Under the pieces are notes generated by a model. It worked only from the letters and a program-made list of their open reading frames with translations. It searched no databases and was not told the origin of the DNA. 64,000 bases of DNA, taken from the NCBI GenBank assembly GCA_965219565.1, contig OZ244780.1, forward strand, positions 2,476,256-2,540,255, written 5' to 3'. Origin of the DNA: Dehalococcoidia bacterium. Its GTDB lineage: Bacteria > Chloroflexota > Dehalococcoidia > Lucifugimonadales > JAGWBF01. Positions 34,920 through 56,325 of the stretch are shown piece by piece (within the stretch, counting starts at the first letter, position 1; the number at the start of each line of letters is the position of its first letter). Position numbers and translations under genes: made by a program.

Positions 34920-35011
34920 ACCTCCGGATTGTGTTGCAGGGTTGTTGAAACTTGCGCTAGAGCAATCGAGTCGATATTAAGACGCCACGTTATAACTGTC
35001 AAATTGGCGAA

Positions 35012-35040
35012 TTGACTCGACGCCTGCCCCAGATTACAAT
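35012..35040 (+). promoter_or_regulatory. sigma-70-like promoter TTGACT-N17-TACAAT
   Basis: -35 at 35012-35017 and -10 at 35035-35040, 78 nt upstream of the enoyl-CoA hydratase ATG. An imperfect palindrome GTCAAATT-GGCG-AATTGAC overlaps the -35. Confidence 0.4.
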
Positions 35041-35117
35041 GCGAATCGCCGAGCGGCGAGGTTTCCCGCGCAGTTGCGCTGCCGAATTCATCCCCACACT
35101 CGTTACGAGGAGCAACC

Positions 35118-35906
35118 ATGTCCTACCAGACCATCGTAGTTGAAAACTCCGAAGGGGTGGCCACCATCACGCTCAACAGGCCCGAGGTGCTGAACGCCAT
35201 GAACCACGTTCTGGTGGGAGAGCTTGACCAGGCCATGTCTGAAGCGGAGGAGGACGACTCCATCGCGGCCATTATTCTCACCGGCGCAGGAGACAGGGCT
35301 TTCTCAGCGGGCGCCGACATTCACGAGCAACGGGAAGACGCCACGAAACGAGAGAGCGGCGAACTGACCGAGGACGAAGACCGTCATAACAGGGCGGTAC
35401 GGTCCCAGGCCAGCTGGCACGTAGGTTCCTCTTCAAAGCCGGTCATCGGCGCTCTCAACGGACTGTCCTACGGCGGCGGCAGCGTACTGGCATCCTCCCT
35501 GGACATCCGGGTTGGATGCGAGCGTTCCAGGTTTCGGTTCCTGGCAGCCGCGTACGGCCGTCTCAACTGCACCTGGACCCTTCCGCAGCAGGTGGGCTGG
35601 CCCATCGCCAAGGAGCTTCTCTTCACAGGCCGGGTTGTGGAACCCGACGAGGCCCACCGCATCGGACTGCTCAACCACCTTGTCTCCCACGACCGGGTGA
35701 TGGAGAAGGCCCGGGAGATTGCGGTAACCATCGCAGGGAACAACCAGAACTCGGTGCGGGGCCTGAAGAAGCTGCTGATGGAAGACGTGGGGTCCGGGTT
35801 CCAGGAGATGTGGGAGCGGGAGCGAAACTTCCTGAGGGACGACTTTGTGGCTCCCCACGTAGAGGACTCCTTCAAGGAGTTCATAGAGCGCAAGGGCCGG
35901 TCTTAG
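35118..35906 (+). CDS. enoyl-CoA hydratase/isomerase (crotonase) family
   Basis: 262 aa. ITLNRPEVLNA, GAGDRAFSAGADI, NGLSYGGG. Confidence 0.85.
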   Translation: MSYQTIVVENSEGVATITLNRPEVLNAMNHVLVGELDQAMSEAEEDDSIAAIILTGAGDRAFSAGADIHEQREDATKRESGELTEDEDRHNRAVRSQASWHVGSSSKPVIGALNGLSYGGGSVLASSLDIRVGCERSRFRFLAAAYGRLNCTWTLPQQVGWPIAKELLFTGRVVEPDEAHRIGLLNHLVSHDRVMEKAREIAVTIAGNNQNSVRGLKKLLMEDVGSGFQEMWERERNFLRDDFVAPHVEDSFKEFIERKGRS

Positions 35907-35950
35907 AGCAGCAGGGACGCCCAACAAACAGGGATTTTTGGCCCCCGGCT

Positions 35951-35987
35951 CACCGCCATCTCAATCTTCCCCCTCAAGAGGGAAGAG
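35951..35987. repeat. hairpin repeat, copy D (single type-3 unit, inverted)
   Basis: CACCGCCATCTCAATCTTCCCCCTCAAGAGGGAAGAG is the reverse complement of the second unit of copy C (54768-54805), apart from a few substitutions. Confidence 0.7.
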
Positions 35988-36004
35988 ACTTTGCGAAGGC
36001 TTCG

Positions 36005-36361
36005 TTACAGCTGATTCCTCAGCTTCGCCAAAAACTGGTCCACCTGGTGCAGATGGAGAGTAATCGCAGGTCGGCTCAGCCAACCCTCATAGAAGTTGAT
36101 GTGCAAGTTTGCAGCGCTGCCGAATTGGAGCCTGAGGTCATCATCTTCGGCTTCTTGCGCAAGCTTAGAAACAGCGTCATGCAGGTCATGGTGGCTCTTG
36201 TGGTCCCACCGGCGTTTTTCAGCAACGGCCTTGACCATTTGCGAGGCCGCACCCCAACCCTTTTCCGAGGCTTGCCGCAAATCGTCCTTCTCTAGCTCTT
36301 CCTGGGCCTGCCGCCAGTATTCCGCCGATTGCTCAGCATAAGTTTTTCTCGCCGTTGTCAT
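36005..36361 (-). CDS. PaREP1-like (HEPN-superfamily-like) helical protein
   Basis: 118 aa. DLRQASEKGWGAASQMVKAVAEKRRWDHKSHHDLHDAVSKLA...NLHINFYE matches my memory of the PaREP1 family pattern. Confidence 0.55.
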   Translation of the reverse strand: MTTARKTYAEQSAEYWRQAQEELEKDDLRQASEKGWGAASQMVKAVAEKRRWDHKSHHDLHDAVSKLAQEAEDDDLRLQFGSAANLHINFYEGWLSRPAITLHLHQVDQFLAKLRNQL

Positions 36362-36457
36362 GTATTGAGCCTTCCCCTACTTATAGGATTCATGCTACAC
36401 CCTCGCGTTGGACTGTTAAGGAAGACAGGAAATGAAGGGCCCGCGAGCGCCCGGCGT

Positions 36458-37660
36458 CTACTGGATGATTTCCTTGTCCAGCATCTCCTGTATCTGGGTG
36501 TCGCTGTAGCCCATCCCTGACAGGACCTCTTTGGTATGCTGGCCTACGGTGGGACCGAGGTTCCTGAATCCCGGCGGGGTGTCCGACATGTGGAGCGACG
36601 ACGCCGGCTGGATAATCTTCTCCCCTTCGGGCCCTTCCAACTCCAGGACCATGCCCCGTTCGACCAGGTGAGGGTCTTGCATGGCCTCGTCGATGGAGTA
36701 GACCTTTCCGACGCATATGTCTTTGTCCTTTAGCTCCTCGAACCATTCGTCCATAGTCTTGGTCTTGAAAGTGTCCGTGAGAAGCTGAAAAACCTCCTGG
36801 CGTTTCTCACCCTCGGTATGCTGGTGGGAGACAAGGTCGGGCCGTTCCAGGTAGTTGCAGAGGTTCTCCCAAAACCAGGGTTCAAGCGCCGCGACGGAAA
36901 TGTACTGCCTGTCCTTGGTTTCGTAAACGTTGTAATGAGGGTAGCCGCCATTGAGCCTGTTGCGCCCTCGTACGGGAATCTCCCCATAGGTCTGGTGACG
37001 GGCGATCAGAGCGGCCATCAGGTAGAAGGCGCCCTCGGCCATTCCTATGTCGATGTATTGGCCACGCCCCGTCTTCTCGCGGGCAATGATGGCGGCCAGA
37101 ATAGCGACGGCGCTGCAGAGGCTGCCTCCGGCATAGTCCGCTATGTAGTTCATAGGGATGGCTGGTTTGTCGTTGGGATCGTATCCCACGAAGTCCAGGG
37201 CTCCCGCCAGGGAGATATAGTTGATGTCGTGGCCCGCCATTAGCTTATAGGGGCCGTCCTGGCCATACCCTGACAGGGACAAATAGACGATTCGCGGATT
37301 AATTTCATTGATGGTCTCGTATCCGACGCCCAACCGGTCAACCACGCCGGGACGAAAACCCTCGATGACGACGTCAGCGTCCTTGGCCAAGCTGTAGAAG
37401 ATATCCTGAGCCTCTCTATGCTTCAGGTTCAAGGCGATGCTCCGTTTGTTCCGGTGCATGGCGCTGTACTGCAAATCTTTCGACACTTGGCCCCAGCTTG
37501 CGGCTCCCGTTGAACTGCGCTCGAACGCGGTCCGCGCGCTATCCATGGGGCGTTCGACCTTGAGTACGTCGGCGCCCAGGTCACCCAGCATCATCGTGCA
37601 GAACTCACCCGGAGTGTTGCGGGTCAGGTCCAGAATCTTGATTCCATCTAGGGCGAACAT
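36458..37660 (-). CDS. CaiB/BaiF family III CoA-transferase
   Basis: 400 aa. LDGIKILDLTRNTPGEFCTMMLGDLGADVLKVERP, catalytic-Asp region GHDINY. Confidence 0.85.
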   Translation of the reverse strand: MFALDGIKILDLTRNTPGEFCTMMLGDLGADVLKVERPMDSARTAFERSSTGAASWGQVSKDLQYSAMHRNKRSIALNLKHREAQDIFYSLAKDADVVIEGFRPGVVDRLGVGYETINEINPRIVYLSLSGYGQDGPYKLMAGHDINYISLAGALDFVGYDPNDKPAIPMNYIADYAGGSLCSAVAILAAIIAREKTGRGQYIDIGMAEGAFYLMAALIARHQTYGEIPVRGRNRLNGGYPHYNVYETKDRQYISVAALEPWFWENLCNYLERPDLVSHQHTEGEKRQEVFQLLTDTFKTKTMDEWFEELKDKDICVGKVYSIDEAMQDPHLVERGMVLELEGPEGEKIIQPASSLHMSDTPPGFRNLGPTVGQHTKEVLSGMGYSDTQIQEMLDKEIIQ

Positions 37661-37675: not shown

Positions 37676-38479
37676 CTAGCTGAGGCTTCCCATGAACTTG
37701 CGCCACACATCGACGCACTTGTCGGGATCGGTGTGCTGCACGAAGCCCGACGTTCCCTTTATGACCTCCAGCCTGGCGCCTGGAACCAGGCTGACTATGC
37801 CGTCTGCTCTTCCAGGCTCCCGGTTGTACTCCCCCTCGGAGATGAGGACCAGGGTCGGCGTGGTGATTTCGGGCAATATGGCAGTCAAGTCTACGGTGGA
37901 CAGGTACGTCAGGGTTTCCACAACCACATGCTGCGCAGTGGGTATCATCTGCTGGGCGTACCATTCCCTGTATCCGTTGTCGTTGTCCCCCGGCGGCGCC
38001 CTGCGGTCCATTTCCTGCCGCACCCAGGGTTCGACTCCCTGTGCCGCCACCAGGTCCCGGTTCTCCACGTAGGACGACGCCCCCACGAACTTAAAGGGTG
38101 AGCTGCACACGGTCAGGCTCTTGAGACGGTCGGGATACATATGGGCGAACCTCATGGAGATGGTGCCGCCCACCGTCTCCCCCACAAGATGGACTTTGTC
38201 CAGCCCCATTGCGTCCAAGAAGTTCCTTATGTCATCCGCGAACCCTTCCAGGGACCAGTCGTAGCCAGGAGCGGGCACGGACGAGTTCCCGTAGCCCCTG
38301 GCATCTATGCGCAGCGTTCTGTACTGGCGGGCCAACTCCGGGACCCATCCGTACCATAGCTTGTGGTTCTTGGCCTGGCCGTGGTGCATCACCACAGCGT
38401 CGGGAGTGCGCCAGGGGTCTGTGTAGTCGTTGTCCTCGTAGAACATTTCAAGGGAGCCCGGCAAGCTCACGGTGGGCAT
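37676..38479 (-). CDS. alpha/beta hydrolase
   Basis: Start MPTVSL at 38479 with a GGAG-containing RBS (GGGGGTGGAG). HHGQAKN, nucleophile elbow GETVGG. The tracked ORF extends to 38668 without support. Confidence 0.75.
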   Translation of the reverse strand: MPTVSLPGSLEMFYEDNDYTDPWRTPDAVVMHHGQAKNHKLWYGWVPELARQYRTLRIDARGYGNSSVPAPGYDWSLEGFADDIRNFLDAMGLDKVHLVGETVGGTISMRFAHMYPDRLKSLTVCSSPFKFVGASSYVENRDLVAAQGVEPWVRQEMDRRAPPGDNDNGYREWYAQQMIPTAQHVVVETLTYLSTVDLTAILPEITTPTLVLISEGEYNREPGRADGIVSLVPGARLEVIKGTSGFVQHTDPDKCVDVWRKFMGSLS

Positions 38480-38656
38480 ACTCCACCCCCAATACGGTCG
38501 AAAATCCAGGGCGATTATAGCATGACCCGTCCCACGGCTTCCCGACGCCGACGGGCGGGCGGAGGCCGGACCCGACAGCGCCTCACAAGCAAACGCCACG
38601 CGTTTACGACATCGGGTCCTACGCAAACCGATCTCCGGTGGGGTAAAATAGCCGCC

Positions 38657-41551
38657 ATGCCCCGCCACACGGAACCAAGCGCCAATAACGACCTGTCAGA
38701 CCTGTTGCGGCCCATGCTCCCCGGCTGGGAAGTGCGTTCCGAGAACACTCAGATCATCTTGGGCCACCCGGGCCTGCAACCCGATATCCTGATTACGGTG
38801 CAGGGCCGCTCTCCGGTGGTTATAGAGGCAGAATACATGCCCGCCCACACAGTGGAGGCGGAAGCTCTGTCCCGCCTGGGGCTGTCCGTCACCGTCCATA
38901 CCCGTCCCATCGAGGCGGCCATAGCCCTACGCTACCCAGAGGGTGTCGCCGACTCCGACGACCTCTTGACTGCGCTAGCAAACGCCCGGGTCTCCTATGC
39001 AGTTTTCACCGAGGACGGCAAGCGTTTCCCCGAATCGGGATGGCTGGACGGCTCCCCCATTGACCTTGCCGACCTTATACGCTTGGTGTCCGTGCCACAG
39101 CGTGCCGTCAACGCGGCTGCCACCGCACTGGAGAAAGGCATTGACCGAGCCGCCAACATTCTGAACGACATGTCAAAATTGCGACCCGGCATCACCGCCG
39201 ACATCGCCCGACTGCTGGGCATGAGAGATGTTCCTCAGACCCGGCGCATGGCCGGCGCCATCATTGCAAACGCACTGGTGTTTCACGAACGCATCGCCGG
39301 AATGCACGACGGAGTAAAACCGACCGAGATGGTGTGTGGGCCCGACGCTGCCAATCCCAAGGGCGAAACACTGGCTGCGTGGACCGAAATCCTGGAAGTC
39401 AACTACTGGCCCATATTCGCTATTGGCAAGGACATCCTCCGGCAGCTTCCGTCCGGAGACGCCGCCAACATCCTCAGGACTTTGCAATACACGGTCGACG
39501 AAGTAAACGCAGCCGGCATCAACAGCGCCCATGACCTGACCGGGCGCATCTTCCAACGCCTCATTGCCGACCGGAAATATCTGGCCACTTTCTATACCCT
39601 GCCAGCCTCGGCGGCCTTGCTGGCCCGGCTGGCTGTGGCCAAAATCGACCGTGTAGACTGGAGCGACGTAGAGGCCATTGGCAAGATGCGTATCGCCGAC
39701 TTCGCCTGCGGCACCGGCGCCCTCCTTGCCGCAGTCTACGAGCAGATAGCCGCCCTCTATGAACGAACCGGAGGGGACCCGGCGAAACTACATCCCATGA
39801 TGATGGAAGAGGCACTCTTCGGCTGCGACGTAATGCCGTCGGCAATCCACATCACAGGCTCGACCCTGTCGGGCGCCCAACCAGCCGTCCAATTCTTTCG
39901 GTCCCGTCTCTACACCCTCCCCTACGGTCGGCAACGAGACGGCAGTGTTTCCATTGGCTCCCTTGAGCTGTTGCAGTCCTCGGCGACGGGGGTCTTGTTC
40001 AACACCAGCGATCCTGCCTTGCGTACCAGCAGCATAGGAGAGGAGACCGCTAGCTACGTAATCGCCGACGTCCCTGACGAAGGCTTCGACGTGGTGATAA
40101 TGAACCCGCCGTTTACCAGCAACACTAAACACTATGATGCTAGCGAAGGAGTTGTAAACGCCGCTTTTGCCGCCTTCGATTCTTCTGAGGAAGACCAGTC
40201 CAGAATGGCGAATCGGCTGAGACAGCTGGCCACGGACACTTGCTATCACGGACATGCCGGAGAAGGTTCCGTATTCGCCGCGCTTGCCGACAAAAAACTA
40301 CACCCCAACGGGGTTATCGCTTTAGTGCTGCCCTTCACAGCAATCAACGGAGCCTCGTGGTCGAAGTTCAGGGAACTTATTGCCACACAATATGACGACG
40401 TTACGATTGTAAGCATCGCGGCCAATGGACACGACATGTCCTTTTCATCGGACACCGGCATAGCAGAGTGTCTTATCATAGGTCGCAAAATAGCTCGAGA
40501 TGAAGAGCCTAGCTATCGCGCAAAGTTCGTCTCTTTGCGGCACAGGCCGTCAAGTTTTGTTGATGCTCAACTGCTCGCCAGAACTATCGTGTCAGATATG
40601 GCCACTCGTCAATTGGAAGACGGGCCATATGGCGGCATACCCATATATAGCGGAGACGCCTTGACGGGAGAGTTGCTGGATGCTCCCATCGACAGGCACG
40701 AGAACGGCTGGGGCGCCGCTCGAATTCGTGATGCCTCAGTAGCCCAGACCGCGTATTCGTTGTCTTCCGGAAAGCTTTGGTTACCTGCGGAACCTAGTTC
40801 TTATGACATACCAGTAGCGCAATTGAGCCAAGTCGGGCGGCGGGGACTGGATTCTCAGTTGTTCATTAGCTCTGCCCACAAAGGTCCCTTCACCAAGGCG
40901 CCGCCCAGCCCCACCGCCACCTATCCCGCACTGTGGAACCACGACGCCAAGAATGAAACACGAATGGTCTGTACCCCTGACTCTCAATTGTTGGTCAGAC
41001 CCGGAATGGAGGCCAAAGCCTCTGAGGTTTGGGCAACTGCCAGCCGTGTTCATATCAACCGTGATTTTACTTTCGGTTCACAGGCTCTCGTCATTGCATT
41101 TACCGAATGGAGGTCCATAGGCGGCCGGGTGTGGCCCAACTTGATCTTCGGCGACGACAGATTCGACTATGCCTCCATGGTATGGGGAAACAGTACGTTA
41201 GGGCTTCTGAGTTATTGGTGGCACTCAAGCCGGCAGCAATCGAGCAAGGCTGGAATGACCATCCGATCTGCCGAAACGCTGCCAGTGCTGGACTTTCGCA
41301 CTCTGAGCGACGAGCAGTTGGCCTTGGCCCAGGAGATATTCGAAGAGTTCAGGGACAAGGAGCTCAAGCCTGCTTACCTGGCCGACGCCGACCCCAACCG
41401 TGCGCTGCTGGACAGACGCGTGGTCTGCGATCTGCTGGGATTCAACGAAAGCGTCTATGAAGGTGTCCGGCGTCTTGCCGCCAAGTGGTGCGCTGAGCCT
41501 TCGGTGCACGGCGGTAAGGCCCGACCCAAAGACGCCGTATTCGAGATGTAA
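38657..41551 (+). CDS. large N6-adenine-type SAM-dependent methyltransferase with N-terminal nuclease-like region (candidate type IIG/IIL restriction-modification enzyme)
   Basis: 964 aa from the ATG at 38657. Motif I DFACGTGALL (39698-39718) then motif IV NPPF (40103-40114), which is gamma-class order. N-terminal PDILITVQGRSPVVIEAEY (38780-38836). About 450 aa of C-terminal region of unknown fold. Confidence 0.65.
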   Translation: MPRHTEPSANNDLSDLLRPMLPGWEVRSENTQIILGHPGLQPDILITVQGRSPVVIEAEYMPAHTVEAEALSRLGLSVTVHTRPIEAAIALRYPEGVADSDDLLTALANARVSYAVFTEDGKRFPESGWLDGSPIDLADLIRLVSVPQRAVNAAATALEKGIDRAANILNDMSKLRPGITADIARLLGMRDVPQTRRMAGAIIANALVFHERIAGMHDGVKPTEMVCGPDAANPKGETLAAWTEILEVNYWPIFAIGKDILRQLPSGDAANILRTLQYTVDEVNAAGINSAHDLTGRIFQRLIADRKYLATFYTLPASAALLARLAVAKIDRVDWSDVEAIGKMRIADFACGTGALLAAVYEQIAALYERTGGDPAKLHPMMMEEALFGCDVMPSAIHITGSTLSGAQPAVQFFRSRLYTLPYGRQRDGSVSIGSLELLQSSATGVLFNTSDPALRTSSIGEETASYVIADVPDEGFDVVIMNPPFTSNTKHYDASEGVVNAAFAAFDSSEEDQSRMANRLRQLATDTCYHGHAGEGSVFAALADKKLHPNGVIALVLPFTAINGASWSKFRELIATQYDDVTIVSIAANGHDMSFSSDTGIAECLIIGRKIARDEEPSYRAKFVSLRHRPSSFVDAQLLARTIVSDMATRQLEDGPYGGIPIYSGDALTGELLDAPIDRHENGWGAARIRDASVAQTAYSLSSGKLWLPAEPSSYDIPVAQLSQVGRRGLDSQLFISSAHKGPFTKAPPSPTATYPALWNHDAKNETRMVCTPDSQLLVRPGMEAKASEVWATASRVHINRDFTFGSQALVIAFTEWRSIGGRVWPNLIFGDDRFDYASMVWGNSTLGLLSYWWHSSRQQSSKAGMTIRSAETLPVLDFRTLSDEQLALAQEIFEEFRDKELKPAYLADADPNRALLDRRVVCDLLGFNESVYEGVRRLAAKWCAEPSVHGGKARPKDAVFEM

Positions 41552-44698: not shown

Positions 44699-44728
44699 TT
44701 GACACTAATCTCGCTCAAGGGGTAGCAT
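44699..44728 (+). promoter_or_regulatory. candidate promoter TTGACA-N18-TAGCAT
   Basis: Perfect -35 at 44699-44704 and a weak -10 at 44723-44728. GGAGG RBS at 44747-44751, 5 nt before the ATG at 44757. Confidence 0.3.
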
Positions 44729-44756
44729 CCAGGCAACACTAGACACGGAGGTTCGG

Positions 44757-45293
44757 ATGGCAATAGGAAAAATCAGCATCCTGGACCCCACCGCCCAGTC
44801 CAACACCCAGGACTCCGGCTTGGCCCCCAGGGTCGGCGGACTAGGGGGCGGGACGCTGGGCCTGATCACCAATAGCTGGCGGAGCTTCGACGTGGTGTCA
44901 AACCACATCGAGCAGATGGCCAAGGACCGGTACGAGGTCCGTGAGGTGATGAGGACCATCAACCCTGACGTTTCCAGCCCCACTCCCAAAGACACGCTGA
45001 ACATCCTCATCGACAAGTCGGACGCCGCCATCGTCGGCATGGGACATTGAGGGTCCTGCACAACGTGGAGTGTCCACGACGCAGTTTCCCTGGATGAAAG
45101 CGGAGTCCCTTCAGTCGTGATAGTCACGGAGCAGTTCAGCCGGCTGGCTTCCACGATAGCCAAGTCCCGGGGCAGGCCCGGCCTCCCCATCCTTGTCCTG
45201 CCAGCCAACATAGAAGACCTGTCCGACAATGAGTTGGAGGACTTGGCACATAAGACCCTGGACCAGGCGGCAGAGAAACTGACAGAGGTCTAG
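44757..45293 (+). CDS. UGSC-motif protein, candidate selenoprotein (in-frame TGA at 45048-45050 read as Sec)
   Basis: The frame stays open for 81 codons after the TGA, to TAG 45291-45293. Read-through gives DAAIVGMGH-U-GSCTTWSVHDAV... A hairpin starts 13 nt after the TGA. The next gene starts 8 nt after the TAG. Confidence 0.7.
45057..45083 (+). promoter_or_regulatory. SECIS-like hairpin downstream of the UGA
   Basis: CGTGG-AGTGT-CCACG (45064-45078) with an outer TGC/GCA pairing (45057-59 / 45081-83). The core stem begins 13 nt after the UGA. Confidence 0.45.
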
Positions 45294-45300
45294 ACAGGCT

Positions 45301-46344
45301 GTGACCAGCCCTCCCCTAAAATCGGAACGTTCCGAAATCGAGGACTCGCCAGAGGCAGTCCTCGATTTCGTATTGAATCAGGGTTGGGGAGACGGCCTCC
45401 CCGTGATTCCCCCCACTGAAGAACGAGTGCGGGCAATGGTGGAAGGCTCCGGCCTGCCCGCAGACCATCTCATTGGCAGCGTGGGGCCCGCCAAAGGCGA
45501 GGCCACCATCGAGAAGATTGCCGTGAACGCCGTCATGGCCGGATGCAAACCGGAGTACATGCCGGTTCTGACAGCCGCGATGGAAGCGGTATGCGAGTCC
45601 CAGTTCAACATCGACGGGGTGCAGAGCACGACCAATCCCTGTGGCGTCGGTATAGTGGTCAACGGCCCGATACGCAATACGCTGGACATCAACTGCTCCC
45701 GCAACTGCATGGGCCCGGGGTGGCAAGCAAACGCTACTATAGGCCGCGCCATGTCATTGATGTGGCTGAACATCGGCGGGGCCAAGCCCGGAGAGGTGGA
45801 CAAGGCCTCCCACGGCTATCCTGGCAAGTACACCTTGTGTTTCGGAGAGGACGAGGAGCACACGCCCTGGGAGCCGCTCCACGTCGAGCGAGGGTTCAAA
45901 GCCGAGGAGAACACGGTGACAATTAACTCCTTCAACGGCACCCTGAACATCATCGGGGCCACCTACACTGAGATAGACAGCATGCTCCATGTCATAGCCC
46001 ACGACTTCAGCCAAATGGGGAGCAACAACCTGCACCTTGGCAAGGGCAATCCGGGTCTGGTCCTGACAGCGGGCCATGCGCGCTGGGCGCATGAAGCCGG
46101 AATGTCCAAGTCCGACGTGAAGGAGTTCGTATACCGGAACAGCGGCTTCCCGGTTGAGAAGCTGAGGCCCATGATCCGGCGGAACCGGATTGACGCGGTG
46201 ATAGAAGACGGAGTCGTCCGGCAAGTGCGTAAGCCCGACGACATCATGATAGTGGTGGCGGGCGGTGTGGAACCCTACCACGCCGTGCTTATGCCGACCT
46301 TTGGCGACTCCTGGGCCGTCACTAAGCCCATCCGCGTTCCCTGA
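45301..46344 (+). CDS. uncharacterised conserved-looking protein, partner of the UGSC gene
   Basis: 347 aa, GTG start with a GAGG-type RBS. GWGDGLPVIPPTEERV, AVNAVMAGCKPEYMPV, several Cys (NPCG, INCSRNCMGPG). No family recognised. Confidence 0.6.
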   Translation: MTSPPLKSERSEIEDSPEAVLDFVLNQGWGDGLPVIPPTEERVRAMVEGSGLPADHLIGSVGPAKGEATIEKIAVNAVMAGCKPEYMPVLTAAMEAVCESQFNIDGVQSTTNPCGVGIVVNGPIRNTLDINCSRNCMGPGWQANATIGRAMSLMWLNIGGAKPGEVDKASHGYPGKYTLCFGEDEEHTPWEPLHVERGFKAEENTVTINSFNGTLNIIGATYTEIDSMLHVIAHDFSQMGSNNLHLGKGNPGLVLTAGHARWAHEAGMSKSDVKEFVYRNSGFPVEKLRPMIRRNRIDAVIEDGVVRQVRKPDDIMIVVAGGVEPYHAVLMPTFGDSWAVTKPIRVP

Positions 46345-46350
46345 GCAGAG

Positions 46351-47493
46351 CTATTTGACGGGCTTGGCCCACTCTGGTATCTGTTTGGTGGGAAGCTGGA
46401 CTGTCGCCGTGCCCTTGGTGGTCATTTCCTTGCGCTGGTTCTCACCGATGAACTCTATGTCCACCAGCCGATCCTCACCCTCAACGCGTTTGTCAGTGAC
46501 TTTCCCGCGGAGCCAGGTCGTGTCCCCTACCATGTTGAAGCGGCGGAGCTCCACGTACATTTTCTTCAGAAACCCGTCGTCGCCCATCCAATTGGTGAAG
46601 AGGTTCCCAACCCAGGAACAGCGCTGGCAGCCGTAGTCGTAGGCTCCGGGAAGGCCTGCGCTGGTGGCCGCCTCCTCGATGTCATGGACGCGCACGATGG
46701 CTTCCTGGGCGCCGGTGTTGGGGTCACGAAAGCCCCATGAAGGATGACGCCGAACTTCCTTTAGTTGAAGGCCGTGGGCCAGTCCGCCGATGCAGCCTGC
46801 CACAAAGGCGGTGATGTCTCCGTGGCTCAGGGGTCCCTTGACCACCGGGCCAATTTCGTCGCCCACGTTCACGTCGTCCCACCACCTGGGGTTGGCGCCC
46901 CTGATTTCCTCGTTGAGGACTGCATCCTCTATCTCATCGATTTCGTCCCTTGTGTATGCGTAGGGCTGAAAGTCGTACTTCCTGTTCTCCCGGGCGGCGG
47001 TGCGTTCGGCCCTAAAGTTCCAACCGCGGGTGCGGGCAATGACCTCGCCGCGCTGGTTATAGTAGTGGCAGGTGGAGGACTGCTTGATGGTCTTTCCGGC
47101 GAACCTGCTGGGCATCTCCTCCAAGTCCGAGAACTGCTCCTTCACGGAGATGCGGTCGTCCATGTGTATGGGGCGGAACCACTCCCAATCGGAGCCCGAG
47201 TGGAAGGCATGGACCCCAGGAAGTCCTCCGGTGCGGCCTGAGCACCAGTAGACGCTGTACAAGAAGCAGGGGGGAGCTATGATGGTCCCATACTTTGTCT
47301 GGCGGGCGTACGATTCGTCCTGATATAGGGGATTCGGGTCGCCTATGCCCTGGCAGAAATGACGAATGGCGTCACGCGATGCAAACTCGTTGAAGAGTCC
47401 TACACCGTATTGCCTGGGCCTGTTGAAAGCGCCCAGTCTGTCCCTCAGGCGTTGCAGCCCCTCTTCCGTTATCTTTCCAGCTTCCAGCACCAT
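46351..47493 (-). CDS. double hot-dog (MaoC / FAS1-dehydratase-like) acyl dehydratase
   Basis: 380 aa. N-terminal IRHFCQGIGDPNPLY and a second hot-dog half ending in a beta-sheet-rich region. First gene of a CoA-transferase operon. Confidence 0.6.
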   Translation of the reverse strand: MVLEAGKITEEGLQRLRDRLGAFNRPRQYGVGLFNEFASRDAIRHFCQGIGDPNPLYQDESYARQTKYGTIIAPPCFLYSVYWCSGRTGGLPGVHAFHSGSDWEWFRPIHMDDRISVKEQFSDLEEMPSRFAGKTIKQSSTCHYYNQRGEVIARTRGWNFRAERTAARENRKYDFQPYAYTRDEIDEIEDAVLNEEIRGANPRWWDDVNVGDEIGPVVKGPLSHGDITAFVAGCIGGLAHGLQLKEVRRHPSWGFRDPNTGAQEAIVRVHDIEEAATSAGLPGAYDYGCQRCSWVGNLFTNWMGDDGFLKKMYVELRRFNMVGDTTWLRGKVTDKRVEGEDRLVDIEFIGENQRKEMTTKGTATVQLPTKQIPEWAKPVK

Positions 47494-47585
47494 GAAACAA
47501 AACCTCCTGGGTTTATGGGTACCTTTACACGGGAGCTAGGTCCGGCGAACCCTATGGTAACGGTTCCCGGCCAACTTAGACAACC

Positions 47586-48821
47586 TCAGTGGACAGCGCC
47601 GCTCTCCACAAGCAGCTTCAAACTGGGAGCTGGTACGCCCAGGAGTTCCCCGAAAATGTACTCGTTGTGTTCTCCGAGCAACGGAGCCGGACGCCGCACC
47701 TTGGCTTCGGCGCCGCTCATCACCCAGGGTTGCCCGTAGAGCCATTCGGCCCCGATGTGGGGATGTTCAGTCTCCAGAAACGCATTTCGTTGGTGGAAGT
47801 GCTCCTCCTGGAACTGGTCGCCTATGTGCATTACGGTCATCGCCGCCACTCCGGCGCCTTGCAGAAGTTCGGTCACTTCCTCAGGACTTCTTTGAGAGGT
47901 CCAAGCCGCCACGTGTTTGTCCAACTCCGCTCGGTTAACGTGACGCAAGTAACGGTCTCCGAACCGGGAGTCCTTGGTCCAGTCCGGGAAGCCCAAGGCT
48001 TCACAGAAGGCCAGCCACTCCTCCTGTGTCCGCACGGCTATGGACACCCACCTGTCGTCGCCCGCGCAGGGGTAATTATTGTGAGGGCCAAACTCAGGGT
48101 CAACGTTGCCCATGGGTTCCGAGACCCTTCCGTTCATCGAAAAACCCAGCAGGCTCTCGCCCATCATGGCCGTGGACGCCTCTAACTGGGCCACCTCCAC
48201 GTACTGGCCTTGGCCGGTGCGGTTCCGGTGGCGCAGGGCGGCGGCGGCGGCCAGCGCCGCGTGCAGCGACGCCACTGCATCGCACCACGCCGACTGGATT
48301 TCACCCACCAGAGGCTCGTCGGGATACCCCACCAGGCTCATCATGCCAGAGAGGGCTTGGACGATGGGGGCGTAAGCCAGAATGTCCCTTTCGGGACCCG
48401 TCTCCCCCGCCGCGGGCATGGAGACGACGATGATGTCGGGCCGCAAGGCCTTAAGCGCCTCGTATCCCAGCCCAAGCCGGTCCATGACTCCGGGAGAGAA
48501 GTTGTGCATCACTACGTCGCTCTGGGCAATCAGATCCTTCACGAGGGCCAGGCCGTCGGGTTCCTTCAGGTTGACCGTGACGCACATTTTATTGCGGTTG
48601 AGGCTGTGGTACAGAGGCTGAAGCTCCGGCCAAAGTCCCCGGTCTCCCCCGGCAAAGTCCTCACCCACCAAGGGTCTGCCCAGGCGAAGCCCGTCCATTC
48701 GGACGCGGCTCTCGACCTTTATCACCTCGGCGCCCATGTCTCCCAGCAATTGAGCGCCCATAGGCCCCGCCCATGCAGTGCCGAAGTCCACAACTCTGTA
48801 TCGTTCCAGGGGCAGAGCCAT
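47586..48821 (-). CDS. CaiB/BaiF family III CoA-transferase
   Basis: 411 aa. YRVVDFGTAWAGPMGAQLLGDMGAEVIKVE and family III architecture. Confidence 0.85.
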   Translation of the reverse strand: MALPLERYRVVDFGTAWAGPMGAQLLGDMGAEVIKVESRVRMDGLRLGRPLVGEDFAGGDRGLWPELQPLYHSLNRNKMCVTVNLKEPDGLALVKDLIAQSDVVMHNFSPGVMDRLGLGYEALKALRPDIIVVSMPAAGETGPERDILAYAPIVQALSGMMSLVGYPDEPLVGEIQSAWCDAVASLHAALAAAAALRHRNRTGQGQYVEVAQLEASTAMMGESLLGFSMNGRVSEPMGNVDPEFGPHNNYPCAGDDRWVSIAVRTQEEWLAFCEALGFPDWTKDSRFGDRYLRHVNRAELDKHVAAWTSQRSPEEVTELLQGAGVAAMTVMHIGDQFQEEHFHQRNAFLETEHPHIGAEWLYGQPWVMSGAEAKVRRPAPLLGEHNEYIFGELLGVPAPSLKLLVESGAVH

Positions 48822-48823
48822 CG

Positions 48824-50083
48824 CTATATGATTCCCGTCCTTCTCATCAGCGTCAGGTCTTCCGGACTATGCCCCAACTGGCCGCATATAATCTCCCGGT
48901 TGTGCTGGCCCAGGGTCGGGGCGGGTCTGACCAGCTTCCAGGGAGTTTCCTGGAAGCGGATTGGAGCGCCGGGGTACCTCAACGTGCCGGCCTTAGGGTG
49001 GTCCAACTCATGGAAGAACTCCCTCTCGTTCATGTGCTCGCTGTTCATCACGTCGTCTATGGTGCGGACAGGCACACAGGGCACCCGATTTTCCATGCAC
49101 ATCTCCATGATTTCCGCCTTGGTGTGCTCCATGAACCAGGGCGTAATCAAGGCTTCAGCCTCCTCCGGGTACTCCTCCGTCATGGCCCGCCGGTTACGAA
49201 ATTTGGGGTCCTCTGTCCATTCCGGGTCGCCGATCATGTGGAGAAATCGCTGGTACTGCTCCATCTGGGGACAGTCGATGCAGACGTAGCCGTCTTTGCA
49301 GGGGAGCACACAGTTGGGGAAAAGCCCCAGCCGCATCCGATTCCCCGAGCGCCATCCGGCTATCCCCCGGTATATGTATGTGGGCAGATGGTAGCCGGTG
49401 AGTATTACGGCAATCACCTGGGACTCGGACACGTCCACAAGCTGGCCCTCACCGCTGATGTCTCGTCCTACAAGTGCGATAGTGGTGGCCAAGGCTGCGG
49501 TTACGCCCGCCATGAAGCTGGCCTGGTAGGCGGGTGTCGTCAGAGGCTCTCTATGGGGATGACCGTTCCCAAAACTGAAGCCTCCCGCTGCGTTAGCGGT
49601 CAGGTCGCATCCCTTGTAGTCCTTGTAAGGGCCGGTCCGGCCATAGGGGGTAATGGAGGTGACTATCAGCCGGGGGACCTCTTGCTTAAGGGTCTCGTAC
49701 TCCAGACCCAACTCGCGGGTTTCGCTGACGGGCCGGTTCTCTACGAATACGTCCGCCCATCGGAGGAGGTCCAGAAGAATTCCCCCGCCGGCCGGATTTC
49801 CGGGGTCGAGACTTATCCCACGCTTGTTGGAATTCAAGAACAGGAACAGCCCGCTCCGCTCACGATCGGGGACGTCTCCGGGGAAGGGGCCGTGGATCCT
49901 GGCCTCGTCGCCGTAGAACGGCGGCTCCACCTTGATCACGTCCGCCCCCATGTCGGCCATCATCTTGGAGCAGTACGGCCCTGAAATGGAGCTGCCCCAT
50001 TCTACGACCCGTACCCCGTCCAGCGGACCTGATGGACCGGTCTTGTCGCCCACCACTGTCCTAACCTTCCTCAGCCACGCCAC
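48824..50083 (-). CDS. CaiB/BaiF family III CoA-transferase
   Basis: 419 aa. LDGVRVVEWGSSISGPYCSKMMADMGADVIKVEPP. Its stop is 2 nt before the next paralog start. Confidence 0.85.
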   Translation of the reverse strand: MAWLRKVRTVVGDKTGPSGPLDGVRVVEWGSSISGPYCSKMMADMGADVIKVEPPFYGDEARIHGPFPGDVPDRERSGLFLFLNSNKRGISLDPGNPAGGGILLDLLRWADVFVENRPVSETRELGLEYETLKQEVPRLIVTSITPYGRTGPYKDYKGCDLTANAAGGFSFGNGHPHREPLTTPAYQASFMAGVTAALATTIALVGRDISGEGQLVDVSESQVIAVILTGYHLPTYIYRGIAGWRSGNRMRLGLFPNCVLPCKDGYVCIDCPQMEQYQRFLHMIGDPEWTEDPKFRNRRAMTEEYPEEAEALITPWFMEHTKAEIMEMCMENRVPCVPVRTIDDVMNSEHMNEREFFHELDHPKAGTLRYPGAPIRFQETPWKLVRPAPTLGQHNREIICGQLGHSPEDLTLMRRTGII

Positions 50084-51068
50084 TTAGGTTGGGAATGACC
50101 TCCCGGCCGAAGAGCTCGATGCACTTCACACTGTCCTCCGGGTCCATGCCTAGGTAGTAGACCCTGAAGAACATGTACTCAGCGCCGAACTCGTCTCTAT
50201 ACTGCTGGATTTGCTCCGTCACGTCGTCCGGGTCTCCGACGATAATGCGCTCTCCCTTGAGCTGGGCGAAATCCAGGTCGTACCTCTCTCCGGGCTGGCC
50301 TGCCTTGTGGTAGACCTGATAGAGCCTTTCAAAGGAATCTCGTATGGTCCGCTCGGCGGCCTCACGGCTGTCGCTGACGAACATTTCTCTAAAGAATACT
50401 GGTGGGGGCGCTGGAAGCCCCAACCCTTCCCTACACGTCTTATACGCCTCCAGCGCCTCCCGTAAGAAGACCTTGGAGTGTCTTGGACTGGTGAGCCATG
50501 CATCTCCCGCCTCAGCCGCGCGCCGGACTCCCCGCAAGGTGTCTCCGCCAACCCAGATCGGCGGTCCCGGCTGCTGCACTGGCTTCGGAGCAATGCTCAC
50601 GTCTTTAATCCGAAAGAACTCTCCATCCCAAGTGACCCGGTCCTGGGACCACAGCTTCCTGATGACCCGTATGGACTCCTCCAGACGCATTCCACGGCAC
50701 GCCTTGGGGATTCCAAAGGAGTCGAACTCCTCGTCTCTGTAACCCTGGCCGACTCCGAACACGAATCGGCCCCCAGTGATGACATCCAGATTCGCCGCCA
50801 GCTCTGCGGCTTCAACCGGGTTGTGGAGGCTCAGCAGGTACACTGCCGTGCCCATCGTCATTCCCTCGGCTTCGGCGGCCAGCCTCGCCAGTAAAGGGAC
50901 CGGTTGGAACATGCCCTCGTTCGGTCCCGTCACGTAGTGATGGGAGGCGAATATGCCGTCAAATCCCGATTCCCGCGCAGCCCTCGTCTGCTTTATTGCA
51001 TACCTGAAGGCTTCACTGCCCCCCATGTCGGCGGGGTAATGGGGGTAGAGGTCTATCCCGAATTTCAA
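50061..51068 (-). CDS. luciferase-like (LLM class) flavin-dependent oxidoreductase
   Basis: 335 aa. MKFGIDLYP, FDGIFASHH, RFVFGVGQGY. Confidence 0.8.
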   Translation of the reverse strand: MKFGIDLYPHYPADMGGSEAFRYAIKQTRAARESGFDGIFASHHYVTGPNEGMFQPVPLLARLAAEAEGMTMGTAVYLLSLHNPVEAAELAANLDVITGGRFVFGVGQGYRDEEFDSFGIPKACRGMRLEESIRVIRKLWSQDRVTWDGEFFRIKDVSIAPKPVQQPGPPIWVGGDTLRGVRRAAEAGDAWLTSPRHSKVFLREALEAYKTCREGLGLPAPPPVFFREMFVSDSREAAERTIRDSFERLYQVYHKAGQPGERYDLDFAQLKGERIIVGDPDDVTEQIQQYRDEFGAEYMFFRVYYLGMDPEDSVKCIELFGREVIPNLSGVAEEG

Positions 51069-53501: not shown

Positions 53502-53599
53502 CGCGTTTCCTCTTTCCCAGCCGCTCCGATGGGATTATAATCCCATAACATTGTAACCCAGCCGGGCTAACCCATGTCGGGCGTATAAGGAGGCATCCA

Positions 53600-54706
53600 A
53601 TGGCAGACAGAGGCAGAGTCATCGTACACGTTGAGCATGGCAAACCCTTCGAGATTCGGGAGTACGAACTCCCGGACCCCGAACCCGGAGCAATCATCGT
53701 CAAAATCGAACAGGCCGGCATCTGCGGCTCCGATCTGCATACCTGGAGGGGCGACCAGGTAAACATTCCCATCCCTCCCGGGGGCCGCGTCATGGGCCAC
53801 GAGGGGACGGGCGTCGTCTACAAGATGGGCGCCGGAGTCACCACCGACAGCGGCGGAACTCCCATCAAGGAAGGCGACCGGCTGATGCACGTCCACGTCT
53901 TCCCATGCTACAGCTGCCACATGTGCAACAGGGGCGCGACCAACTGGTGCGTAAACCGCCAGTACCCCGAGGGTGGGATATGGCCCTACTTCACGGGGAC
54001 CTATTGTGACTGGATTTACCTTCCGCCCCGCCACCCGGCTTTCAAGGTGCCCGACGAGCTTCCCGACGACATCCTGGGTTATGTCAACTGCGCCATGGGC
54101 ACCGTCACCGAAGGGCTGATGCGGGCCTCCGCCCATGAAGGAGACTCGGTGGTCATAATGGGTGCAGGCGGCCTGGGCCTCAACGCAATAGCAATGGCCA
54201 GGGACATGGGCGCCGACAGAATCATAGCCCTGGACAGGCTGGAGAACCGCCTCAAGCTGGCGGAAGACTTCGGGGCCGACTACACCATCAACATCGAGGA
54301 GTACAACACGCCGGAGACACGGGTGCAGCGGGTCTGGGAGTTGACCCGGAACCGTGGCGCCGACATCGTCATGGAGCTGGTGGGCAGGGCCGAACTGCTG
54401 GTTGAGGGAATCGACATGCTCAGCAACGGCGGCACATTCGTCGAAATCGGAGACATCGTCCCCGGACCCACGGCGGCCATCGACCCATCCAAGATGCTGA
54501 GGGGCAAGAACATCGTGGGATCGTCCATGTACCGGCCGGACACCCTGGCCAGGCTGCTGGACTACCTGGTGAAGAACCGGGACAAGATTCCATTCCACAA
54601 AATCGTGTCCCACAAGTTCACATTCGACGAAATTAACGACGCCTTCCCGAAAGCCGAGTGGCAGCAGCGCCAGACGGACATCTCCAGAGCGATGTTGGTC
54701 CCCTAG
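53600..54706 (+). CDS. zinc-dependent alcohol dehydrogenase (MDR) family
   Basis: 368 aa. GICGSDLH, GHEGTGVV, structural-zinc Cys cluster CYSCHMCNRGATNWC, Rossmann IMGAGGLG. Confidence 0.85.
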   Translation: MADRGRVIVHVEHGKPFEIREYELPDPEPGAIIVKIEQAGICGSDLHTWRGDQVNIPIPPGGRVMGHEGTGVVYKMGAGVTTDSGGTPIKEGDRLMHVHVFPCYSCHMCNRGATNWCVNRQYPEGGIWPYFTGTYCDWIYLPPRHPAFKVPDELPDDILGYVNCAMGTVTEGLMRASAHEGDSVVIMGAGGLGLNAIAMARDMGADRIIALDRLENRLKLAEDFGADYTINIEEYNTPETRVQRVWELTRNRGADIVMELVGRAELLVEGIDMLSNGGTFVEIGDIVPGPTAAIDPSKMLRGKNIVGSSMYRPDTLARLLDYLVKNRDKIPFHKIVSHKFTFDEINDAFPKAEWQQRQTDISRAMLVP

Positions 54707-54726
54707 GCAACCTTTGCGCAAATCCC

Positions 54727-54805
54727 CCCTCTCCCTCTGGGAGAGGGTTGGGGTGAGGGCCGCTCTGCCTCTTCCCCATTGAGGGGGAAGATTGAGATGG
54801 GGGTG
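54727..54805. repeat. hairpin repeat, copy C (type-1 unit plus type-3 unit, both forward)
   Basis: CCCTCTCCC-TCT-GGGAGAGGG + TTGGGGTGAGGGC (54727-54760). CTTCCCC-ATTGAG-GGGGAAG + ATTGAGATGGGGGTG (54771-54805). Confidence 0.8.
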
Positions 54806-54842
54806 AACGGGAGCGGCGCCTTGGCTCAGGGCTGCCCTAAAC

Positions 54843-56325
54843 TCAAGGCTGGTAGATAAAAGCGTCGGGCCTGAACGAGGCCCACGAAAACCACAGTGCG
54901 CTGGGGTAGTGGGGCAGCGGGTCCAGTCTGGCGCCCCCCAACGGTCCCGACGTAGCAAGTCCCAGTAGGTTCCAGGAACTCCCCGTCTCCTCGTCGACGA
55001 ACACGCCGTCCTTGCCGTCTGGGCTCCGGGAAAAGCTCAACCGGTCTCCGTCGACTATGGGGGAGAAGACACCTACGGACCCCACCTCGCGCCCCAGGGC
55101 GATTACCTGGTTGTCCAGGGCCGAGGCCGTGTGCGGCTCGTAGAACACCACGATAGGCTCGCCTCCGACCGTCGCTTCCACCACTGGCTGCTCCCGTAGG
55201 ACCGAGTAGGGCGCAGCGAAAGCCTCTCCGTTCAATTCTACGCCCCGCCACCCGCGTCATCCTCGACAACGTCACTTCGTTGGAACCCGACGTGATTCCC
55301 AGCTGGTTGTAGGTGTCGTAGCCTGCGTAGGCTGACATGCCATAAGGAATGCTCGTGTCGGGCTTCGAAAGGACTTTGCCGTCAGGGAAACTATCCTTGA
55401 AGTCCGACCAGGACACCATCGCCATAGGCAACTGCTCCAGCTTCACGCCCGCGTACACGCCAACTATGCCCTCTCCGCCGAACTCCTGCCACCAGGACTC
55501 GGTCTGCCGGTCATACATTATCAGGTTGAGGCGGCGCAGCTTGCCTGAAACGCCGAAGTCCAGGACCCCCCCATCCAACGTCCGCCTGTACACGAAGGCG
55601 GTGTTGCAGAGTGGTCAATAAGTGACCACAACAGGCTCTCCTCCCACCAAGTCGTTGACCAGCTCGTGGAACATCATTATCTGGATTGGGTAGGCCCTGT
55701 GGTCTCCGTCGATGCTGACCGTCTGCACCGGCTCCCAGTCGGCCAACCACTGGCTTGCCGATTCCACCGACTCAAACTGGGGTGCGTCGATGGACTCTAT
55801 GCCGTCCTTGGGAGGACCGCCGCCCCGGATTCCAAGAAAATCGACGGTCTTGAACCTGAAGTCCGTCTTCGGCCATTCGGAGGTGTTTATGAGCGCTTCG
55901 GCCAACTCACGGCGAGCGTCCGACCGGCTTATAGCTTGCACTCCTCCCTTGGAATACTCGACGGGTTCGGGCGTGGACGTGGGACGTGGCGAGGCGGTGG
56001 GATTGGGTTGAGGCGTCGGAACGGGTGTGGCTGTTAGCGGAGCCGTGGGACTGGGAGCCGCAGTAGGGCTGGGCGCAGGCATCGGTGTGGCATTGGGCGT
56101 TGGGCTTGGAGCCGGAGAGCCATCAGAACCGTCCCCGCATGCCGCAACAGCGACAACCAACATGACTGCGGCTGTCAACCTCAGGGCCAAAACCGCCGGC
56201 TTGGAATGGGAAATGCGACGACGGGAGAAACGCCTCGGGAGAACTTCGCCCTGATGCCCGGCTTCCAAAGAGGTCCTATATTCCTTCCGTGTAGACGAAT
56301 CGATCCGCTGTAGCAGGTTTGACAA
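54843..56325 (-). CDS. DUF3179 lipoprotein, interrupted as assembled: in-frame TGA at the conserved Cys (candidate Sec) plus an apparent 1-nt frameshift near 55242
   Basis: Lipobox VAVAAC and a Pro/Thr/Ser linker. DGDHRAYPIQIMMFHELVND...VVVTY-TGA-PLCNTAFVY...IMYDRQTESWWQ continues in the same frame (tracked ORF 54826..55593). The C-terminal part (NGEAFAAPYSVL...) is in the frame of ORF 54843..55235. Confidence 0.6.
55582..55601 (-). promoter_or_regulatory. SECIS-like hairpin downstream of the UGA in the DUF3179 gene
   Basis: On the coding strand CCGCCT-TCGTGTAC-AGGCGG, with the stem starting 13 nt after the UGA (55617..55615). Confidence 0.4.

Follow-up and report, generated by a model that had tools for sequence, protein, structure and literature searches.

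What does a TGA codon mean when it falls inside a gene that otherwise stays open, and what might such a gene do? Both questions are raised by a UGSC-family gene at 44757-45293 (+) in a 64,000-nucleotide stretch of contig OZ244780.1 from a Dehalococcoidia bacterium; this whole stretch is called the window below. The frame of the gene is interrupted by TGA at 45048-45050. Comparison with related sequences indicates that this codon is almost certainly a real selenocysteine (Sec) codon. It is also quite likely that the gene encodes a 178-residue selenoprotein acting as the small subunit of a two-part selenol/thiol enzyme, together with a 347-residue partner encoded just downstream. The elements of the gene are these (coordinates, strand, description, basis):

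44699..44728, +: promoter-like TTGACA, 18 nt, TAGCAT upstream of the UGSC gene; consensus scan, 10/12 matches
44747..44751, +: GGAGG ribosome-binding site, 5 nt before the ATG at 44757; read from the sequence
44757..45047, +: N-terminal part of the UGSC gene, 97 codons, ending ...VGMGH; Pfam PF24696 coverage and database fragments
45048..45050, +: in-frame TGA read as selenocysteine, U98; aligns with TGA or TGC/TGT in relatives
45051..45293, +: C-terminal part of the UGSC gene, 80 codons plus TAG; PF24696 match to residue 176 of 178 and synonymous-dominated changes
44705..45229, -: spurious antisense open reading frame (ORF), 174 aa, overlying the UGSC gene; atypical codon-position GC (0.48/0.56/0.77)

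The promoter-like site is a pattern match alone, made with a consensus that covers Chloroflexota promoter types poorly.

An open frame across the TGA

A preliminary description of this DNA had proposed that the frame continues past the TGA, that automatic annotation would yield a 97-residue fragment, and that the overlying antisense ORF is spurious. All three points hold. Direct reading finds 80 further codons between the TGA and the TAG at 45291-45293; the downstream gene starts with GTG at 45301, 8 nt past that TAG. The read-through product of 178 residues contains ...AAIVGMGH-U-GSC-TTWSVHDAV.... The twelve closest public-database homologs, 60-96% identical to the N-terminal part, are exactly 97 residues long and end at this codon. 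Beyond the TGA, GC at the three codon positions is 0.62/0.44/0.72, in keeping with the real genes of the window (overall GC, 59.5%), and unlike the values for the antisense ORF. That the latter turns up again in related loci is due solely to the conserved sense gene that it mirrors. A window-wide scan for coding-like frames interrupted by TGA recovered the UGSC site; every other match was an antisense artefact.

TGA terminates nine of the 42 genes that have Pfam support in the window, and the genetic code is therefore not reassigned here. Among the same genes TAG ends 25 and TAA eight. This dominance of TAG seems unusual at 59.5% GC, where TGA would be expected to dominate.

With U replaced by C, the read-through product matches Pfam PF24696, 'UGSC family', at 149 bits (cut-off 25; E 2e-43), with residues 8-176 of 178 aligned on profile positions 2-171 of 172. 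The motif reads H-U-G-S-C, and Sec takes the first position of [U/C]-G-S-[C/S], in line with the family. The top NCBIfam match is the equivalog NF041046, 'UGSC family (seleno)protein' (residues 32-176 on profile positions 3-147 of 147). Membership of this family, which the preliminary description had proposed, is borne out by the whole-length Pfam match together with the alternation of Sec and Cys in related loci (below). Weak matches of the product to ribosomal protein S10 (sequence search of the Protein Data Bank (PDB), E 0.002-0.01) were rejected as spurious, since a search with the family profile did not bring them back.

The UGSC family (Zhang and Gladyshev) was described from Sargasso Sea and Global Ocean Sampling (GOS) metagenomes, where it is among the most abundant selenoprotein families; the GOS set holds 255 Sec and 21 Cys forms (PMC2398784). 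A thioredoxin-like fold and a thiol-redox role were proposed, and an unnamed domain, 'Unknown_1', was noted as a fusion partner (PMC2398784). Its function is still uncharacterised according to a 2026 review (PMC13188914). The family has been known since 2005-2008, and the Dehalococcoidia gene adds a member to a described family; it is no new kind of system.

Selenocysteine or stop?

Scanning reference genomes yielded 40 loci, and the Sec/Cys column was compared across 44 loci spanning Dehalococcoidia, Acidobacteriota, Alphaproteobacteria, Moorellales, and Anaerolineae. Of these 44, 21 have TGA at the column and the other 23 have a Cys codon, TGC or TGT. TGA occurs in 13 Dehalococcoidia, two Acidobacteriota, two Rhodospirillales, one Moorellales, and one Anaerolineae locus, plus duplicate contigs. 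The 13 Dehalococcoidia loci are 45-98% identical and come from independent assemblies; in the reference-genome scan the window itself is 94-98% identical to Dehalococcoidia metagenome-assembled genomes (MAGs). More distant full-length database homologs have Cys at the Sec column. The homologs therefore align across the TGA with Cys or Sec, which is what the preliminary description had asked of a search with the U-to-C product.

Coding sequence beyond the TGA is under constraint. Of the codons after the TGA that differ in close relatives, 17 of 18 and 19 of 21 are synonymous, and divergence is concentrated at third positions, a pattern of purifying selection. In mid-distance relatives (L001, L004, and L011) amino acid identity is 74, 65, and 68% for the C-terminal part and 63, 60, and 64% for the N-terminal part, respectively. 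The C-terminal part is conserved no less than the N-terminal part. The candidate Sec codon of the preliminary description is thus upheld by three lines of comparison: TGA/Cys alternation, purifying selection after the TGA, and the SECIS-type hairpin treated below.

Could the TGA simply be a genuine stop? The gene would then encode a 97-residue protein, with the downstream 80 codons untranslated or forming a separate small protein from the GTG at 45117. Every database copy is annotated as ending at this codon, and no Sec machinery is visible within the window. However, 22 codons separate the TGA from the first possible start; these codons (GSCTTWSVHDAVSLDESGVPSV) belong to the best-conserved stretches of the family, and they align unbroken with full-length Cys-form proteins, with synonymous-dominated divergence. 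Pfam, moreover, treats both halves as one domain. Termination at this codon is highly improbable.

The hairpin after the TGA

A candidate Sec insertion sequence (SECIS) lies directly behind the TGA.

45056..45084, +: bacterial SECIS element; fold, local energy, pairing in Sec loci, and published criteria

The predicted upper stem pairs CGUGGA (45064-45069) with UCCACG (45073-45078) over 6 bp around the apical loop GUG (45070-45072); the lower stem pairs CUGC (45056-45059) with GCAG (45081-45084). The hairpin that had been drawn at 45064-45078, beginning 13 nt past the UGA, is recovered as CGUGG(A)-GUG-(U)CCACG. A consensus for bacterial elements specifies a loop of 3-9 nt with G within its first two positions, a stem of 4-16 bp, a distance of 16-37 nt from the UGA, and a minimum free energy (MFE) of -7.5 kcal/mol or lower (PMC13188914). 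The hairpin fits all four published criteria: GUG loop, 6-bp stem, 19-nt spacing, and -9.1 kcal/mol.

In 13 Sec loci, 94% of pairing cells are filled, versus 19-52% for controls with slid partner columns. One pair covaries: G-C becomes C-G in Acidobacteriota and G-U in Rhodospirillales. In Cys loci CAUCG replaces CCACG, and the hairpin is lost. Local MFE is -10.8 kcal/mol for Sec loci versus -7.5 kcal/mol for Cys loci (Mann-Whitney p ~7e-5, for loci that are not phylogenetically independent). The local hairpin alone separates the two classes; folding energy over 63 nt does not. In two Sec-type fusions (L041 and L043, below) a strong hairpin of another kind, with a GGUC loop, stands equally far from the UGA. 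Rfam returned nothing relevant, either for the whole window at the gathering threshold or for 44950-45200 at E<=10.

A second gene with an internal TGA

The window contains another selenoprotein-family gene.

54846-56325, -: DUF3179 (PF11376) selenoprotein-family gene with TGA at 55615-55617; Pfam gain on read-through, and the same TGA in relative L050

ORF 55615..56325 (-) stops at a TGA within '...VVVTY-U-PLCNTAF...' (U-P-L-C). On read-through the DUF3179 match grows from 76 bits (profile 1-64) to 223 bits (profile 1-194). The TGA is followed by the hairpin CCGCCU-UCGUGUAC-AGGCGG, and L050 has the same TGA with the downstream frame intact. A published list of selenoprotein families includes DUF3179, with the motif UxxC/T (PMC13188914). 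In BSepDB, Dehalococcoidia MAGs carry 46-49 selenoprotein genes; these counts and the DUF3179 gene together are counted as support for Sec decoding in this lineage.

The DUF3179 gene also changes frame at about 55213-55246 (-), where there is one extra G near 55246 (GGGG versus GGG in L050). This is an assembly indel or a real strain frameshift, and an indel error is likely. An error of this kind bears on a further explanation of the UGSC gene, namely that it is a pseudogene or that its TGA is a sequencing or assembly error for the Cys codon TGC or TGT. The window does hold at least one likely indel error, the extra G just described. Yet the UGSC TGA is common to 13 Dehalococcoidia loci from independent assemblies and to four other groups, and the frame beyond it is intact and under purifying selection. 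The chance that decay or error accounts for the codon is close to negligible.

A near-constant partner

If the UGSC gene encodes a selenoprotein, with what does the protein work? The next gene offers an answer.

45301..46344, +: partner gene, encoding a 347-aa protein of a large unnamed family; synteny, fusions, and an AlphaFold2 (AF2) model

In 42 of the 44 loci, and in all sampled phyla (five phylum-level groups), the gene immediately after UGSC is a homolog of this one. One exception (L037) is a contig that ends after UGSC. The other (L011, OZ240206.1) has its partner, P0020, about 75 kb from UGSC on the same chromosome, beside IS21 (IstB) and HicB genes; a HicB-type gene also follows the orphan UGSC. 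This suggests that the separation in L011 and L049 is a secondary rearrangement mediated by mobile elements. L011, with L049, is the only genome with UGSC and partner apart. In the reverse direction, all four partner units examined (in L045, L047, and L048) have a TGA-split UGSC gene directly upstream.

The two proteins also occur as single chains. On TGA read-through, L041 and L043 encode UGSC-partner fusions of 546 and 551 residues, respectively. An exhaustive profile search collected 7,369 partner-family clusters at 50% identity, 4,950 of them with E<=1e-10. Among the best 150 partner representatives, 18 have a full-length UGSC match and 28 start with the last ~60 UGSC profile positions, which makes 46 (~30%) with UGSC fused. 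The 28 partial starts are the footprint expected of Sec-type fusions cut at the TGA. Given this adjacency and these natural fusions, UGSC and its partner are, on comparative grounds, functionally coupled.

The partner itself found no match in Pfam (as a single sequence and with 76 members individually), in NCBIfam, or, by sequence and profile, in PDB. It may be the 'Unknown_1' domain (PMC2398784).

Several variants of the arrangement deserve mention. Locus L045, 1194-7041 (Chloroflexi MAG GCA_016190665.1, JACPQD010000030.1), has three tandem UGSC-partner units: one 563-residue single-chain fusion with the degenerate site ALCDQGVTQNCC, and two Sec-type split pairs (N-U-G-A-C and N-U-G-S-C). Genes for SBP_bac_5, a cupin, an NAD-binding dehydrogenase, and AcnX come next. 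Proteins P0256, P0269, P0279, P0307, P0340, and P0347 (~700-741 aa) are internal tandem duplications of the partner, with two or three matched stretches; the UGSC domain was not found in P0256 and P0269, the two that were scanned. In P0281, P0309, P0317, and P0378 (~460 aa) the match to the UGSC hidden Markov model lies away from the N-terminus, and the domain order may be reversed.

Predicted structures and conserved residues

For the small subunit, the AF2 model is that of a Cys-form UGSC homolog, P0013, 35% identical to the window protein. It predicts a five-strand beta-alpha-beta sandwich (predicted local distance difference test score (pLDDT), 85.9), with the Cys/Sec position just past strand 3, at the N-terminus of helix 3. 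Foldseek matches of this model are flavodoxins, CheY-type receiver domains, phosphotransferase system (PTS) IIB proteins, and a succinyl-CoA synthetase alpha domain, with template modelling (TM) scores of at most 0.46. No thioredoxin is among the top 50 matches. The UGSC small subunit is predicted to be flavodoxin-like, not thioredoxin-like, assuming that the window protein shares the P0013 fold.

This prediction bears on the view that UGSC is a free-standing thioredoxin-like oxidoreductase, whose adjacency to the 347-residue gene reflects only co-regulation. A thioredoxin-like fold and thiol-redox role have been suggested for the family (PMC2398784), and the U-x-x-C motif of this clade would suit such a protein. 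Against it stand the predicted flavodoxin-like fold, with flavodoxins, receiver domains, and PTS IIB proteins as its top matches; the covalent fusion of UGSC to about 30% of the partner representatives; and adjacency across five phylum-level groups. An independent oxidoreductase is very unlikely.

The preliminary description had placed a redox pair at U-x-x-C. Such a pair is present in this clade: Chloroflexota members keep U-x-x-C as UGSC, UGAC, UGGC, or USTC. It is not family-wide. The motif varies by lineage (HUGSC, NUGSC, NUGAC, YUGGC, HUSTC, and H[U/C]GSS), and Alphaproteobacteria and Acidobacteria read [U/C]-G-S-S, with the second Cys elsewhere. In all, 26 of 49 sequences have [U/C]GSS in place of U-x-x-C, with Cys at 128 or 125 instead. 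The exchange is regular: where position 101 is Cys (23 sequences), 128 is never Cys; where it is Ser (26 sequences), Cys is at 128 in 24 and at 125 in two. In the P0013 model, position 128 falls within the first helical turn beyond strand 4, which is adjacent to strand 3, and the second-Cys sites 101 and 128 both follow adjacent strands. One nearby Cys is always retained, a pattern that fits a resolving Cys for a selenenylsulfide.

The partner is modelled with higher confidence (pLDDT 95.7; predicted TM-score (pTM) 0.93). Foldseek against PDB gave no match below E 1e-3. Residue conservation, taken across 151 diverse partners, marks the following positions:

E183: 100% conserved
R149: 99% conserved
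N144: 99% conserved
D31: 98% conserved
C82: 97% conserved
C180: 90% conserved
E185: 90% conserved

The best fold matches of the partner are class I fumarate hydratases (7xky_A and 6uqn_B), including a two-subunit archaeal enzyme. These matches are weak: E 1.7e-3, probability 0.38-0.57, TM 0.22-0.28, and root-mean-square deviation (rmsd) ~16 A. They raise the question of whether the Sec/Cys residue and the two Cys of the partner ligate a shared metal or Fe-S centre, in a two-subunit hydro-lyase like the class I fumarate/tartrate dehydratases. Subunit sizes (~350 and ~180 aa) and ~550-residue fused forms resemble those of that enzyme family; the partner has two highly conserved Cys, and neighbouring genes suggest di- and tricarboxylate metabolism. 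The fold match itself argues the other way, with so low a TM and so high an rmsd, and there is no sequence similarity to PDB chains or Pfam families. The UGSC model is flavodoxin-like, and its fold search returned no fumarase beta subunit. Three Cys ligands for a [4Fe-4S] centre were not found, only two Cys being conserved in the partner (C82 and C180), and some members are without partner Cys or UGSC Cys. A shared metal site is unlikely.

Gene context

An MmgE/PrpD-family gene follows the UGSC-partner pair in 23 loci (Alphaproteobacteria and Acidobacteriota); companions at these loci are TctC (12 loci), GntR/FCD (nine), and Iso_dh (six). Dehalococcoidia neighbours, including those in the window, are a double-hotdog MaoC-like hydratase, two family III CoA-transferases, a luciferase-like monooxygenase, an amidohydrolase, and an M42 peptidase. 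In other Chloroflexota loci AcnX, glutamate mutase, or hydantoinase genes are nearby. These neighbourhoods hint at a shared theme of small organic acid or acyl-CoA metabolism.

Apart from the pair itself, the window is dense in paralogs for acyl-CoA metabolism at 34071-37660 and 46351-51068, and acyl-CoA dehydrogenases and thiolases are also present:

26749-28404: methylmalonyl-CoA mutase
28611-29549 and 50061-51068: luciferase-like monooxygenases
35118-35906: enoyl-CoA hydratase
36458-37660, 47586-48821, and 48824-50083: family III CoA-transferases
46351-47493: MaoC-like double hotdog

This content presumably resembles that of SAR202-type Chloroflexota. The longest ORF, at 53567-54958 (-) and 463 residues, was rejected as an antisense artefact (first-position GC 0.78; no Pfam match); the real gene there is a zinc-type alcohol dehydrogenase at 53600-54703 (+), 99.5% identical to the L050 copy. 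A 1,062-residue gene at 38363-41551 (+) has a weak match to an Eco57I-type restriction-modification methylase; the call for its L050 counterpart is 955 residues.

A proposed two-subunit enzyme

How might the parts work together? On the comparison of loci, UGA 45048-45050 is decoded as Sec, directed by the SECIS hairpin that begins 13 nt downstream. Synteny and natural fusions show that UGSC and its partner, probably made from one transcript, are paired; they would be the small and large subunits, respectively. In the flavodoxin-like small subunit, Sec98 would lie where strand 3 ends and a helix begins, and could form a reversible selenenylsulfide with the nearby second Cys (at +3 in this clade, and in others in the loop that follows the neighbouring strand). 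This Sec/Cys centre may then hand reducing equivalents to the large subunit, or may act as a direct nucleophile within its conserved pocket. The pocket (C82, C180, E183, R149, N144, and D31) might bind a small organic acid or an acyl-CoA-related substrate. By analogy, the arrangement is comparable to that of PrdB with PrdA in D-proline reductase. The wider proposal, that UGSC serves as the obligate selenol/thiol part, whether subunit or domain, of a widespread and so far undescribed two-component enzyme acting on small organic acids, is one towards which we lean.

Several observations weigh against a Sec-containing, two-subunit enzyme. For Sec decoding, the case is comparative throughout, and selA, selB, selD, tRNA-Sec, and indeed any tRNA were not found within the 64-kb window. 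Over the 63 nt that follow the UGA, folding energy does not differ significantly from that of shuffled sequences (z -0.9), and SECIS covariation comes from one base pair and few lineages. The NF041046 score, 106.1 bits, falls short of the curated cut-off of 125 bits; by this measure the window protein is a divergent member relative to the NCBIfam seed set. For the proposed chemistry, the P0013 model stands in for the window protein at 35% identity, and relocation of the second Cys represents only two or three evolutionary events. The partner residues C82 and C180 are absent from the Sec-type fusions L041 and L043, and four full UGSC-partner fusions have no Cys at the Sec column, so no single thiol-relay scheme suits every member. 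For the substrate, neighbours differ by clade, and in Dehalococcoidia they may merely reflect a paralog-rich genome.

The two-subunit reading nonetheless has practical consequences. The UGSC gene and its relatives are mis-called in databases as 97-residue fragments, sometimes with a second fragment, and the DUF3179 gene is a second mis-called selenoprotein case in the same window. The link between UGSC and partner, the conserved residues, and the carboxylate context together provide a testable hypothesis for a two-subunit enzyme. If it is true, an orphan selenoprotein family abundant in aquatic metagenomes gains a partner, a set of active-site residues, and a tractable operon.

Comparison with known systems

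The original selenoprotein call is real and was rightly interpreted, within a known family; what is added here is that UGSC is coupled, almost obligately, to a very large family that has neither a name nor a recognisable structural relative. Like the described UGSC proteins, the window member is a full-length Pfam match with Sec at the first motif position. It differs in its Dehalococcoidia origin, in falling below the NCBIfam cut-off, and in a predicted flavodoxin-like rather than a suggested thioredoxin-like fold.

The flavodoxin-like Cys proteins of the PTS IIB type, such as PTS IIB cellobiose (1iib/3nbm), share the three-layer alpha/beta/alpha sandwich and a reactive residue at the C-terminal sheet edge, at a helix N-terminus. 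Their similarity to the UGSC model is limited (TM 0.3-0.46; identity 8-18%), and they have neither Sec nor a 347-residue partner. The class I fumarate hydratase/tartrate dehydratase enzymes have similar large and small subunits, fused variants, and a carboxylate context, but differ in domain order: the small subunit comes first in UGSC fusions.

PrdB and GrdB are small Sec subunits with a U-x-x-C motif (PMC2398784, Table 2), and the preliminary description had likened the UGSC site to theirs. That likeness found no sequence support, for there is no GRDB (PF07355) match at E<=0.1 in the Pfam scan. For a comparison of folds, the matches to the P0013 model included no PrdB or GrdB structure, and PMC11229817 cites no PDB entry. 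At UGSC loci with gene content examined, no PrdA/GrdE pyruvoyl proprotein, PrdC, or Stickland genes were seen. The hosts differ as well: aerobic-type Alphaproteobacteria and Dehalococcoidia for UGSC, clostridia for Prd and Grd. As judged by sequence and by gene context, UGSC is not a GrdB/PrdB member. In function, however, PrdA/PrdB is the nearest analogy: there a Sec-bearing small subunit works with a larger, substrate-binding, obligate partner, and the Prd selenol, after attacking the substrate, is reduced again (PMC11229817).

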